64,000 bases of DNA. Source: a phage. The notes under the pieces were generated by a model, which had not been told where the DNA came from, did no database searches, and saw only the letters and a list, made by a program, of their open reading frames with translations. The DNA is taken from sequence record PZ445487.1. One strand, written 5' to 3'. A program made the translations under genes and the position numbers. Shown here one piece after another: positions 22,061 through 63,040 of this stretch (position 1 is the first letter of the stretch; each line of letters starts with the position of its first letter).

Positions 22061-22089
22061 TTTACTCTTAAATAATCATGCACTATTAT
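22061..22089 (+). promoter_or_regulatory. early promoter (TTTACT-N17-TATTAT) with A/T-rich upstream region
   Basis: Hexamers at 22061-22066 and 22084-22089; A/T tract 22021-22060. Confidence 0.5.
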
Positions 22090-22142
22090 AGTTCACATAG
22101 GGCGGTACACAACACCCCGCCGAATGAAAAGTGAAACGACCC

Positions 22143-22169
22143 AACTACATTATGAGGAATTACATCATG
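22143..22169 (+). repeat. conserved early 5' leader motif (tandem variant)
   Basis: AACTACATTATG followed by AGGAATTACATCATG. Confidence 0.5.
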
Positions 22170-22655
22170 GCTACTACCAAAACTCTGATCACCAACGGCA
22201 CCATCTCTTTTGAACTGAACACCGAAGTTGCAAAAGTTGAAATGTTCCGCATCGCTCAGGCAGCTGGCTTCACTGGTGGCAAAACTTCCTTCATGAATCT
22301 GCTGAACGGCAAAGTGAAAGCGACCAACGGCTTCACCCTGGTAGAGCAGGTTGTCGTAGACAAAGCCGTGGTTGCCAAGACTGCTGACAAGGTTGGCATG
22401 CTGAAAGACCTGGGCCATGACATCCACGTTGTCGAAGCGAACACCGAAACTTACGGCACCATCGTAGTCGGTAAAGGTCGCATTCAGCTGAACCCGCTGA
22501 ACAACGGAACCTTCTCCGTGATGGTATTCCCGAAAAAGGGTTATGACAACAGCGATATCGTGAAAGCCGCTGGCGGTGAAGCGAAATCCCAGTATGTCAA
22601 AATGGGTAAACTGAGCGCCGACGCAGTAGAAACTCTGGTGAACAAACTGGCTTAA
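22167..22655 (+). CDS. hypothetical protein (probably abundantly expressed early protein)
   Basis: ATG after conserved leader; strongest-looking early promoter with A/T-rich upstream; codon choice biased to CTG/AAC/GGC. Confidence 0.55.
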   Translation: MATTKTLITNGTISFELNTEVAKVEMFRIAQAAGFTGGKTSFMNLLNGKVKATNGFTLVEQVVVDKAVVAKTADKVGMLKDLGHDIHVVEANTETYGTIVVGKGRIQLNPLNNGTFSVMVFPKKGYDNSDIVKAAGGEAKSQYVKMGKLSADAVETLVNKLA

Positions 22656-22659
22656 CCGC

Positions 22660-22681
22660 AAGGGGGAAACCTCCCCCTTTC
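22660..22681 (+). terminator. rho-independent terminator
   Basis: Hairpin AGGGGGA-AACC-TCCCCCT followed by TTT. Confidence 0.55.
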
Positions 22682-28558: not shown

Positions 28559-28583
28559 ATTGAATAGCAGGAACTATATCATG
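28559..28583 (+). repeat. conserved early 5' leader motif (copy)
   Basis: ATTGAATAGCAGGAACTATATCATG. Confidence 0.55.
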
Positions 28584-28814
28584 ACCAACTCTGAAATATA
28601 TCATGCTTCTATGCATTATCACGACCTACGCGCCCGTCCAGGACACGCCAAACAAAAAGCATTCTGGGTGGCAGAACTCAGATTACGCCGTGCTGTCGTT
28701 AACCACCAAATAATCATGAATCGGAAAAACGACAAATCACCGTTGTTGGCAGATTCTTATCTTGAACTCCGCACAGCCTATGAACAAGCCAAACAGCACG
28801 TAATAGGAGCATAA
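28581..28814 (+). CDS. hypothetical protein
   Basis: ATG at end of conserved leader 28559-28583; early promoter 28501-28529. Confidence 0.45.
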   Translation: MTNSEIYHASMHYHDLRARPGHAKQKAFWVAELRLRRAVVNHQIIMNRKNDKSPLLADSYLELRTAYEQAKQHVIGA

Positions 28815-60377: not shown

Positions 60378-60398
60378 TTTGTCTCTCCCAATAAATTA

Positions 60399-60419
60399 AG
60401 GGGAAGTATACCTTCCCCT
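60399..60419 (-). other. intergenic hairpin between minus-strand genes (terminator/attenuator-like, orientation ambiguous)
   Basis: AGGGGAAG-TATAC-CTTCCCCT; T-rich on plus side, TTAATTTATT on minus side. Confidence 0.35.
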
Positions 60420-60439
60420 TTCTTCAATAACCTAAAATA

Positions 60440-60778
60440 TTATTCAGTACATGCTTTACCGAGGTCTGTAAGCCTATAGAATGTTACTTCAGACTTCGGC
60501 CAATGCTTATACTCTTCAGAGTTGTCATGAACCATTGTAAACGCAGGTTCGATCAGACCTTTAGACAACAAGGATTGACCTGAACGCGTATCCCATGGAT
60601 CACCCTTTACAGAACGAAACCCGCCAGATATCGGTGGCGCATGAAAAGTCCAAACCGTTTTCCCTTTATCGTTCGTCCAAGATTTGGGATTGAAATACCA
60701 ATGACAAACACCCTTTTCAAAATTCAACATTCCTAAAAGGACGCAGAGTTGATGTCCTGTGATGCGTGGCTTTTTCAT
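60440..60778 (-). CDS. hypothetical protein
   Basis: Internal ATG overlapping stop of upstream gene. Confidence 0.35.
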   Translation of the reverse strand: MKKPRITGHQLCVLLGMLNFEKGVCHWYFNPKSWTNDKGKTVWTFHAPPISGGFRSVKGDPWDTRSGQSLLSKGLIEPAFTMVHDNSEEYKHWPKSEVTFYRLTDLGKACTE

Positions 60779-61107
60779 AAGATCCCCAAGTCGGTAAGGT
60801 AACGATAAAACAAGATTATAGACAGAAATCCAATTAACGCCCAAGACGACAGGATAGGCTTTCCATTGAGCGTGGTCTTCCCATTGGGTATGTTAGGACT
60901 TCCGGTAATAACGACGGAGTCTGTTTTGGCTCTCAGCGTCATGATAGAACCCATGAGAATGATTGGGCGCACATAATACCCTTCATGATTGCGCTTCACG
61001 ATACATGGTGAAGAAAATCGCAGGAACGGATCACCGCTTTTATAACCAAATAACTCGACCTTTTCAATTTCTTCGGGTACTTTCTGACCAGGAAAGAATA
61101 TTTTCAT
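60775..61107 (-). CDS. hypothetical protein
   Basis: ORF track. Confidence 0.35.
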
Positions 61108-61682
61108 AATACAATTCCTAAATTTGTGTATAACAACTCAGCCAGGGTTACAGGACGCTTGAATTGTTCCCAACTGCAGTTCAGGTATTCGCGCTCTTCG
61201 CGAATATTTTCGTGAAGATGACCATGGATATTATACGCCCAACGGTCTAATTGATAAGGAACATGTGTTGTCAACACACAGCCAACAGGCGTGTCACGTT
61301 CGTACATAGCGCCGAAGGAGCTAATCCAGCCGTCCAGATACAGAGACAACAACATCTTAAAGCTGTCATGGTTGCCTTGTGCCACCTTGATGATAAAGTT
61401 CGGACGCCAGTCATCGGGAACGGGGCGTCGCTTAAACTCATCAATGTTTCGCTTGGCACCCTCCCGCATCAGGCGAATGAACCCTTCAGCCCCGATGAAG
61501 CATATATCACCAGCCAGTTCAAGAACGTCCCGAGACTTCAACCCCTGAAAGATACTGTCAATGACCGCAGCGTCATGGGCTTCCTGTGTATCAAATCCAC
61601 GCGGTTTAAAGACCTTCTTATGCCCAAGATGAGTGTCACCAAGGTGCTTTACAATTCCCGCCATTATGGTTTCCTCAGCCAT
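61104..61682 (-). CDS. calcineurin-like metallophosphoesterase
   Basis: Motifs GDTHLG, GD..F, GNHD, HGHLH; start may be the internal ATG at 61664. Confidence 0.6.
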
Positions 61683-62005
61683 TCTAAAATCGGTACGTTC
61701 ACAAACCCTTTATGCCAACGATGCGGTTTGTGACCTCTATTATGTTCGAGCAAACACGTGTCTGGTGGGACACTGAAGTGGATGCCGTCGATGTCGTAGT
61801 AATGTCCATCAATCAGAGTATACACATGACCTTCAATCTGGCTATAATGGATCTCTGCTTGAGGATACACATGCTTCAGAACCAGAGCAACCTGATAGCA
61901 CTTTCCGTTCTTCCCAACATACTCAACATCCACCTGTTGTGGGAAGACGTCTTTGATAAGATTTATCAATCTCGTGATGTCATTTACAACAACCGAACAT
62001 TTCAT
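61664..62005 (-). CDS. hypothetical His-rich protein
   Basis: ORF track. Confidence 0.4.
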
Positions 62006-62007
62006 CT

Positions 62008-62670
62008 CTATGATAACTCATGGCGATGTCGAACACAGGCAGGGCAATCACAATTCTTTTTCAAAATTGGCAATTCACACCATGTCATTAAGTCATGTAT
62101 TGGGGACATGTGATGATAGAACCAAGATTTCTTGAGACTAATCAATGGATATAAAATTTCAATAGATCTTTCCCCGTCTCTGGTCATCATGTTGTATCCT
62201 TCAATAACTTTATTAAAGGCGGGTATCCAGTGTATTGCGTCATCGCCGTTAACATATGCCAAGATATACGTGGGTGGCAAGCCACTGCCTTTAAATTGCG
62301 TGTTTAATAACCATATCGGGGCTTGTGCTAAACAAGCGCGAAAACCACCGTTCGGGACGTTGATGCTACTGATAGGTTCTTGATGATGTGTCCAACGATA
62401 CATGAGAAGTGGGGCATTTTTATTAATCCAGTTGTATATTTTATTCCTCGCCCAATTTTCGCGTTTAGATTTAAATTTATTATTTTCGAGGTGGCAATAC
62501 ACAGTATGAACTGAATATCCTTTCGATAGCAACCAAATCAACATGTATGTGCTATCCACCCCACCAGACCAGAACAACGTCACTTCTTGATTATTCTGCG
62601 GCAATGGAGCATCCCCTTGAAGAACACGGTATACAAAATCACAATCAGATATTGAGACAACAATTTCCAT
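62008..62670 (-). CDS. QueC-like PP-loop ATPase (7-cyano-7-deazaguanine synthase family, putative)
   Basis: PP-loop SGGVDS near N-terminus and C-terminal zinc motif C..(9)..CDCPACVRH resembling QueC CxxCPAC..R. Confidence 0.55.
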   Translation of the reverse strand: MEIVVSISDCDFVYRVLQGDAPLPQNNQEVTLFWSGGVDSTYMLIWLLSKGYSVHTVYCHLENNKFKSKRENWARNKIYNWINKNAPLLMYRWTHHQEPISSINVPNGGFRACLAQAPIWLLNTQFKGSGLPPTYILAYVNGDDAIHWIPAFNKVIEGYNMMTRDGERSIEILYPLISLKKSWFYHHMSPIHDLMTWCELPILKKNCDCPACVRHRHELS

Positions 62671-62966
62671 TAAAATATTCCTCTTAAAGAATCATTTATC
62701 CTGCGCAATTCGTTTTCCACTTTTATCTTCATATTTTTATCGTCGTTCACGAAAATCATTTTATCTAAATCTTCGCCATTAATCTTTGTATAAAAATAAA
62801 TGTCATGCTCAAAGAAAATCGTTTTTCCAACAGAACGCATGGCAAAGAACGTTGCGATAGTTCTTGGTAAAGGTTTGAATTTAATGGCATTGAAACGCAA
62901 AGCCTGATAGAGAGGTTTTAATGTTCCTAAGCGAATACAATGCTGGATAATTTCTTGCTCTTTCAT
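62670..62966 (-). CDS. hypothetical protein
   Basis: ORF track. Confidence 0.4.
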   Translation of the reverse strand: MKEQEIIQHCIRLGTLKPLYQALRFNAIKFKPLPRTIATFFAMRSVGKTIFFEHDIYFYTKINGEDLDKMIFVNDDKNMKIKVENELRRINDSLRGIF

Positions 62967-63013
62967 TTGTTGTGTGCCATAAAGATATGATGGTACAATG
63001 ATAATACATTATA

Positions 63014-63040
63014 CAAATAGAAAAGCCCCTTTCGGGGCTT
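63014..63040 (-). terminator. rho-independent terminator (minus strand)
   Basis: Hairpin AAGCCCC-GAAA-GGGGCTT followed on minus strand by TTTTCTAT, directly after stop of 63039-63329 gene. Confidence 0.55.

Follow-up and report, generated by a model that had tools for sequence, protein, structure and literature searches.

Among described metallophosphoesterases (MPEs), the MPE module of bacterial Pnkp is lambda-phosphatase-like, and the phosphatase of phage lambda itself (NinI, PDB 1G5B) is a Ser/Thr phosphatase of the PPP family. The Pnkp module acts as a Mn-dependent 2',3'-cyclic phosphodiesterase and monoesterase (PMC3675462). Mycobacteriophages of cluster A also encode small MPEs, such as Bxb1 gp47 and A10ZJ24 Gp48, and the latter has a reported role in early infection and was shown to damage host DNA (PMC12287305). 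We compared these enzymes with the product of orf033, a gene at positions 61104..61664 of a 64,000-nucleotide stretch of phage DNA (sequence record PZ445487.1), which as a whole is called the window below. Unless stated otherwise, positions are those of the window and features lie on its minus strand.

The orf033 gene encodes a predicted MPE of 186 amino acids (aa); upstream of it lie orf031, the gene of a YunG-like protein, and orf028, the gene of a QueC-like ATPase. A 5-kb query around the locus was 100% identical, as the reverse complement, to Escherichia phage CBA120 (NC_016570; genus Kuttervirus, family Ackermannviridae), and a window position x converts to NC_016570 position 78302 - x. 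The genes are already annotated in this reference phage, orf033 as CBA120_gp026 with the label "putative serine/threonine protein phosphatase", and they belong to known but functionally uncharacterised families. An earlier sequence-only reading of the window had taken the tight coupling of the three genes as a sign of a shared pathway. The explanation that we favour, tentatively and with somewhat less than even confidence, is that they are independent genes, for an MPE, a YunG-like protein that would be a thiol enzyme, and a singleton QueC-like protein.

As a small phage MPE, orf033 resembles those of the mycobacteriophages; membership of their family was ruled out, Bxb1 gp47 (255 aa) giving no match to the orf033 family model even at E<=10. 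With the lambda phosphatase it shares the superfamily fold and the logic of the metal ligands. The 2',3'-phosphatase module of Pnkp, from the Pnkp-Hen1 RNA repair system of Clostridium thermocellum, is likewise a binuclear MPE, and it gave no significant match in a profile search of the PDB with the orf033 family.

A small metallophosphoesterase of the Aq_1665 family

All five motifs of the MPE superfamily (DxH, GD, GNH[DE], H and GHxH) are found in orf033 in their canonical order. Motif I is GDTHLG (aa 9-14, with D10 and H12; 61623..61640) and is followed directly by the nearly invariant H15. Motif II is GD (G52 and D53; 61506..61511) in the context LAGDICF, with no xDRG of the PPP type, and motif III is GNHD (aa 97-100, with N98 and H99; 61365..61376). 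The histidine of motif IV is H134, in THVP (61263..61265), and motif V is HGHLH (aa 147-151, with H147, H149 and H151; 61212..61226). The sequence-only reading had named GDTHLG, GNHD and HGHLH, and these motifs and the open reading frames (ORFs) around them are real. Across 58 relatives, down to 26% identity, D10, H12, G52, D53, G97, N98, H99, H134, H147, H149 and H151 are invariant, and this set is the complete metal-ligand set of an MPE. Because the full set is invariant, orf033 is very likely a catalytically active MPE. By the chemistry of the superfamily, two metal ions would be held by D10/H12, D53, N98, H134 and H149/H151 and would activate water for the hydrolysis of a phosphate ester. 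A predicted structure of orf033 is consistent with the MPE beta-sandwich fold.

The start of the gene had to be corrected from 61682, where the mechanically called ORF begins, to the annotated ATG at 61664. A GAGG Shine-Dalgarno sequence (61673..61676) lies 8 nucleotides (nt) upstream of this ATG, within the 3' end of orf031, and the stop codon of orf031 and the start codon of orf033 overlap as TAATG. The N-terminus MAG is found in 13 of 13 aligned homologues. Because of the ribosome-binding sequence, the uniform MAG start of the homologues and the existing annotation, the true start is almost certainly at 61664.

We then asked to which family the enzyme belongs. Taken alone, orf033 gave no Pfam match at E<=0.1, nothing useful in an NCBIfam scan, and no match in a phmmer search of the PDB. 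It did match PHROG 547 "phosphoesterase" at 1.4e-42, and an exhaustive profile search collected 2101 relatives at E<1e-3. Among the 58 aligned relatives, Pfam Metallophos_2 was recognised in 26 and Metallophos in 25. When the family profile was compared with the PDB, the top match by far in the ranking was Aquifex aeolicus Aq_1665 (1XM7), at 4e-23 over residues 4-166. GpdQ followed at 1e-5 over residues 7-88 only, which covers motifs I-III, and SbcD/Mre11 at 7e-5 to 6e-4, again over motifs I-III. Beyond these came ApaH (3e-3), Rv0805 (0.02), MJ0936 (0.03), PP2A (0.04-0.2), lambda phosphatase (0.22) and a nuclease MPE of Pseudomonas (PDB 6NVO; 0.29). To judge from these profiles, orf033 is a divergent member of the Aq_1665 (1XM7)/PHROG 547 family of small MPEs, and lies nearer to phosphodiesterases and nucleases than to protein phosphatases of the lambda type. 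The description as a compact calcineurin-like phosphoesterase thus stands, with the ligands invariant in 58 relatives and 1XM7 matched at 4e-23, well outside what chance would give. That it is unrelated to gp47 holds at the level of the family, since SbcD/Mre11 was reached only at about 1e-4 over motifs I-III.

Two features set the Ackermannviridae enzymes apart from Aq_1665. Their clade has an insertion of about 20 residues between motifs II and III, and it is too divergent to reach Pfam Metallophos on its own. Large virulent phages often carry a member of the family. A tblastn search of the phage database with the MPE found 637 records, among them several hundred T5-like Demerecviridae at 26-29% identity, and a T5-like relative of 196 aa scored 148 bits against the family model. 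Informative domain fusions were looked for in the longer proteins of the family, and none came to light. We also considered the thymidine-hypermodification pathway of ViI-like phages, in which neither the MPE nor the QueC-like gene takes part; to our knowledge, the T5-like phages, which carry the same MPE family, lack thymidine hypermodification.

Two single genomes deserve mention. Tequintavirus DaisyDussoix carries, two genes apart, a lambda-like phosphatase of 287 aa and a 196-aa MPE of the CBA120 type (L041:2656-3519 and L041:3995-4585). In Dickeya phage RC-2014 (NC_025452, 143437-143508) the match is confined to the 24 C-terminal residues of the MPE (96% identity), which suggests deletion or replacement of the gene with a 3' remnant left behind.

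Linkage of the QueC-like gene, the YunG-like gene and the MPE

Whether the three genes travel together was examined in two neighbourhood scans. The first covered 31 IMG/VR loci with MPE relatives, 17 of them Ackermannviridae-like and 14 distant; the second covered 80 MPE loci (60 groups at 80% identity) with 4-kb flanks. After dereplication, the distant MPE contexts came to about 70. In 11 of the 17 Ackermannviridae-like loci all three genes are contiguous. In two others (L009 and L011), whose MPEs are 93-96% identical to orf033, the YunG-like gene and the MPE are kept and both the QueC-like gene and orf027, the gene upstream of it, are missing. Three loci (L015, L017 and L018) have the MPE together with the QueC-like gene and lack the YunG-like gene, and one (L016) has only the MPE of the three. 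In L014 an ORF of 155 aa is inserted exactly at the TAATG junction between the YunG-like gene and the MPE. In Serratia phage phiMAM1, which lacks a YunG-like gene, the order is reversed: the MPE comes first, and three genes separate it from the QueC-like gene downstream.

Farther away the association disappears. None of the 14 distant loci of the first scan has a YunG-like or QueC-like gene within 6 kb of the MPE, and none of the 80 loci of the second has one in its flanks. Nine distant YunG loci (Seunavirus, Avunavirus, YerA41, Pamexvirus and five metagenomic contigs) lack an MPE or QueC-like neighbour, and two distant QueC-like loci (a Burkholderia jumbo phage and a Vibrio Ackermannviridae phage) lack an MPE or YunG-like neighbour. 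The families are also unequally frequent: in the phage database the MPE matches 637 records, whereas YunG matches 229 and the QueC-like protein matches 200. Linkage of the three genes across divergent genomes, as expected of a conserved module, was therefore not found.

The chain of overlapping genes described in the sequence-only reading is itself real, the five junctions from orf027 to orf035 measuring -1, +2, -1, -4 and -4 nt. Overlapping junctions are, however, usual along the whole genome arm, as at orf036/dCMP deaminase. Because the linkage breaks among relatives and overlaps are usual along the arm, the adjacency of the three genes comes from the tight packing of a mosaic region of accessory genes rather than from a conserved module, and the step from tight coupling to a shared pathway is not supported, on the same two grounds. 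They would be three independently inherited accessory genes that by chance share one densely packed block in CBA120.

In a shared pathway, the three proteins would take successive steps on a single substrate, which would be either a derivative of a nucleotide or nucleobase or a modified protein. The three genes do lie on the same strand, contiguous and translationally coupled, in CBA120 and the 11 Ackermannviridae-like loci, and a partner hydrolase is conceivable given that defence enzymes of the QueC family conjugate deazaguanine to N-terminal glycines of proteins (PMC13279940). Set against this, every gene pair is broken in close relatives (L009, L011 and L015-L018), a foreign ORF separates the YunG-like gene from the MPE in L014, the order is reversed and interrupted in phiMAM1, and the distant contexts of all three families are free of co-localisation; no neighbour has a Met-Gly tail, and the overlaps are usual here. 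The gene-neighbourhood data largely refute the shared pathway, which we regard as highly improbable, and nothing indicates that the three proteins act together. The sequence-only reading would itself have given the pathway up if the enzyme were inactive on nucleotides and cyclic nucleotides and grouped with generic protein phosphatases that occur without QueC neighbours. This applies in part: the grouping with relatives that lack QueC neighbours was indeed found, but those relatives are an uncharacterised phosphoesterase family and not protein phosphatases.

Candidate substrates of the phosphoesterase

As to what orf033 acts on, the most likely class, which we hold tentatively and short of even confidence, is a phosphoesterase for nucleic-acid ends or nucleotides. 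It would act on a nucleic-acid terminus or a nucleotide, for instance in "end healing", where a 3'-phosphate or 2',3'-cyclic phosphate is taken off; a phosphoprotein would be a less likely substrate. This lead, the sole hint at function from gene context, comes from RNA-repair sets in uncultivated phage contigs. The order Rnl1-like RNA ligase, AAA_33 P-loop kinase, MPE is found in L027, L076/L078 and L116-L122 (L027:606-2884, L076:1846-4534 and L118:1527-4492). A kinase accompanies the MPE in L019, L022, L025 and L026 (L019:5060-6528), the order RtcB, MPE, RlaP is found in L030 (L030:4798-7370), and RtcB lies near the MPE in L062 (L062:2-1732). On a rough neighbour-joining tree of the MPEs these contexts fall at four separate places; in all, four to six distant branches of the family have an RNA ligase and kinase, or RtcB, as neighbours. 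The contigs with ligase, kinase and MPE hint at an equivalent of Pnkp put together from separate genes, as their split kinase, ligase and MPE genes mirror its domain set. A polynucleotide 5'-kinase and an RNA ligase, adjacent or fused as in Pnkp, were found in full in L027, L076/L078 and L116-L122, in part in L019, L030 and L062, and not in CBA120. CBA120 lacks a kinase or ligase partner, and the likeness to Pnkp is one of possible role, not of family membership.

Several observations weigh against end healing and against our overall explanation. RNA-repair neighbours occur in only about 9% of the roughly 70 dereplicated contexts, and an unbiased Pfam count over 118 immediate MPE neighbours gave no dominant partner; most frequent was a further Metallophos gene, with 4 cases, followed by sigma-70 (3) and a RecD-like helicase (2). 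In CBA120, neither an RNA ligase nor a polynucleotide kinase (PNK)-like kinase nor RtcB was found by whole-genome annotation, tblastn at E<=1 or jackhmmer profiles. The Ackermannviridae MPEs form a separate branch of the tree, and the distant relatives with RNA-repair neighbours, at 23-33% identity, lie on other branches. The match to Aq_1665 names a family and not an activity, and a search for functional literature on the Aq_1665/1XM7 (COG4186) family found none. The orf033 model is weak in its C-terminal third, with a predicted local distance difference test (pLDDT) score of 52-67, and a Foldseek search of the PDB with it gave no significant match, a null result due to that poor C-terminal part. 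The boundaries of the gene block described below, two hairpins and a TATAAT, are consensus-pattern matches only. RNA repair as the general neighbourhood of the family was set aside, since roughly 9% of contexts show it and CBA120 does not, and for CBA120 end healing is an extrapolation, because this genome itself has no RNA-repair partners.

A bolder form of the proposal, which we consider speculative and rather unlikely, would treat the PHROG 547 MPEs as the stand-alone 2',3'-phosphatase of split phage RNA-repair sets (kinase, MPE and Rnl1-type ligase, or MPE and RtcB). CBA120 and T5 would keep the phosphatase alone, for ends made by nucleases, and the ends would come from host anticodon nucleases or from other RNA or DNA nucleases. 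It would also take the YunG-like proteins as the smallest Cys-His-Asp enzymes of the transglutaminase/papain fold, which would modify a host protein.

Other activities were weighed against the same evidence. The GenBank name implies a protein Ser/Thr (or Tyr/His) phosphatase that acts on host or phage proteins in the style of lambda phosphatase, and this name is carried by many database records of a family that does belong to the same superfamily as the PPP enzymes. The PPP signature GDxHG/GDxVDRG/GNHE is nevertheless not found in orf033, which has GDTHLG, GDICFIG and GNHD and, as motif V, the GHxH that marks enzymes outside the PPP group. The orf033 family shows no significant similarity to lambda phosphatase. 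Because motifs II, III and V and the profile ranking are of the non-PPP kind, the label "Ser/Thr phosphatase" is not supported, and we consider a protein phosphatase, disfavoured by these motif and profile comparisons, to be improbable.

A DNA nuclease that attacks host or phage DNA, like A10ZJ24 Gp48, PdeM, Mre11 or SbcD, would suit the place of orf033 in the profile ranking better, and is still unlikely: the family model does not detect the cluster-A MPE of the Bxb1 gp47 type, the PdeM model (TIGR04123) scored 17.1 bits on orf033 against a cut-off of 150, and the 186-aa protein lacks the capping and DNA-binding domains of Mre11/SbcD; CBA120, moreover, already has gp46/gp47. Quite unlikely in our view is an anti-defence phosphodiesterase that would destroy a nucleotide immune signal (cyclic oligonucleotides, a cyclic ADP-ribose (cADPR)-like molecule or similar). 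The gene does lie in an accessory region of a virulent phage, its family is spread over 637 records of large virulent phages, and there is weak profile similarity to GpdQ and Rv0805, enzymes of the class III type. That similarity is confined in GpdQ to the generic motifs I-III, and no full-length similarity to class III cyclic-nucleotide phosphodiesterases (CpdA, Rv0805, GpdQ), including their class-specific C-terminal half, was found. No known anti-signalling enzyme proved similar, PADLOC gave no match, the family has no conserved defence context, and its occurrence beside RNA ligases and kinases points to polynucleotide substrates. We therefore keep a phosphoesterase of nucleic-acid ends or nucleotides as the preferred, if tentative, assignment.

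The YunG-like and QueC-like neighbours and their gene block

The immediate upstream neighbour of the MPE, orf031 (61664..62005; CBA120_gp025, annotated "hypothetical protein"), encodes 113 aa and matches Pfam PF24591 (Phage_YunG-like) at 7.8e-44, with 148 bits against a threshold of 27. The same match was obtained for 31 of 31 aligned relatives. The protein had been called His-rich, and its 9 histidines, 8.0% of its 113 residues where the window average is 2.1%, give it the highest content of the 87 ORFs in the window (binomial P=6e-4). The ORFs that come next are those at 28560-28814 (plus strand; 7.1% His) and 22086-22661 (minus strand; 6.8%). His-richness as a trait of the YunG-like family was ruled out, since H60 is its sole invariant histidine and H95 the only one that is nearly so.

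What is conserved in this family points elsewhere. Across 31 YunG-like sequences, down to 26% identity, there is no variation at G34, C36, L43, Y54, G59, H60, Y70, D71 or G74, and hardly any at R96 and W97. C36, the candidate nucleophile (61898..61900), stands at the N-terminus of the helix 34-46; H60 (61826..61828) is the first residue of the strand 60-65, and D71 (61793..61795) ends the strand 68-71. An AlphaFold2 (AF2) model, with pLDDT above 87 in its core, places C36 at the start of a helix and H60 and D71 on the next two strands, and so agrees with the transglutaminase/papain-like pattern, in which a conserved Cys opens a helix and the conserved His and Asp come after it on consecutive strands. 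On this model, orf031 is likely a minimal transglutaminase/papain-like domain. C36, H60 and D71 would form its catalytic triad, and the protein would be a thiol enzyme, that is, a protease, deamidase or acyl-transferase, for which LapG, protein-glutaminase, OspI, the arylamine N-acetyltransferases and NlpC/P60 make up the comparison set. A phmmer search of the PDB with orf031 gave no matches. A search of 185,579 species genomes with two peptide patterns only found no YunG-like gene, and no functional literature on YunG-like or DUF7618 proteins was found.

The next gene upstream, orf028 (62008..62670; CBA120_gp024, annotated "QueC-like queuosine biosynthesis"), encodes 220 aa. It has a PP-loop SGGVDS (aa 35-40; 62551..62568), in which G36, G37, D39 and S40 are invariant, and a C-terminal Cys cluster C-x8-C-x-C-x2-C (aa 198-212; 62035..62079), which aligns with the zinc site of QueC/Cap9 and in which C198, C209 and C212 are invariant. 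It matches phrog_1550 at 2e-81 and the QueC model of PADLOC at 1.2e-6. Its score against Pfam QueC, 23.5 bits (cut-off 22), comes from the N-terminal part only, and a profile of six sequences had its best PDB matches in Cap9 (3.7e-6) and QueC (2PG3; 3.8e-6), over the full length. PP-loop, zinc-type Cys cluster and full-length similarity, the marks of the QueC family, are all present. QueC, Cap9 and QatC share the SGGxDS PP-loop and the C-terminal Cys cluster with orf028, which differs from them in being a singleton: FolE, QueD, QueE and DpdA are annotated nowhere in the CBA120 genome, and the protein would have no deazaguanine pathway around it. By these comparisons, orf028 is a singleton PP-loop ATPase of the QueC family and, for the MPE, a neighbour or at most a putative partner. 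The singleton QueC of Kuttervirus SFP10, which is 96.8% identical to orf028, was considered by Hutinet et al. (2019) to be possibly unrelated in function to preQ0 synthesis (PMC6884629). None of the neighbours of orf028 has the N-terminal Met-Gly tail of Cap9/QatC substrates. We also considered the invariant MAG N-terminus of the MPE as an acceptor of the Cap9/QatC type. It probably is not one, because it is also conserved in relatives without a QueC-like gene; removal of Met would leave Ala, and there is no flexible tail.

The three genes form part of a tightly packed block of six. It begins with orf027 (62670..62966; 98 aa, function unknown), which is missing from several close relatives, and continues beyond the MPE with orf034 (60775..61107), which encodes a 110-aa DUF7618 protein and overlaps the MPE stop by 4 nt, and with orf035 (60440..60778), the last gene (112 aa, phrog_4677, function unknown). 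Upstream of the block lies a terminator-like hairpin with a T-run (63023..63040; AAGCCCCGAAAGGGGCTT), followed by a perfect TATAAT (63008-63013) with no good -35 element, and a second terminator-like hairpin of 9 pairs (60398..60420) lies immediately downstream of orf035. The two strong hairpins suggest that orf027-orf035 is a discrete six-gene transcription unit, probably expressed early or in the middle of infection. A review of the Ackermannviridae and a proteomics paper on a Vi01-like phage make no mention of these genes. DUF7618 was seen only in the closer, Kuttervirus-like loci of our sample. The accessory region is mosaic in L014 and L016 (L014:5534-6001, L014:6558-7312 and L016:6570-6941): besides the insertion in L014, other genes stand in place of DUF7618 in both, and among these, downstream of the MPE, one encodes a small protein that carries a HAD-like motif (DFDGTCV).

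Taken together, these results leave the understanding of Kuttervirus biology unchanged, and the proposed link of the MPE with the QueC-like gene falls away. "Aq_1665-like metallophosphoesterase" is an accurate name for what is now called "serine/threonine protein phosphatase" in hundreds of Kuttervirus and T5-like genomes. The Cys-His-Asp reading makes the YunG-like domain of unknown function a candidate thiol enzyme. For the MPE, the RNA ligase and kinase or RtcB neighbours found in part of the family supply a hypothesis on the substrate that can be tested, for a family that has a solved structure and counts over 2000 sequences.

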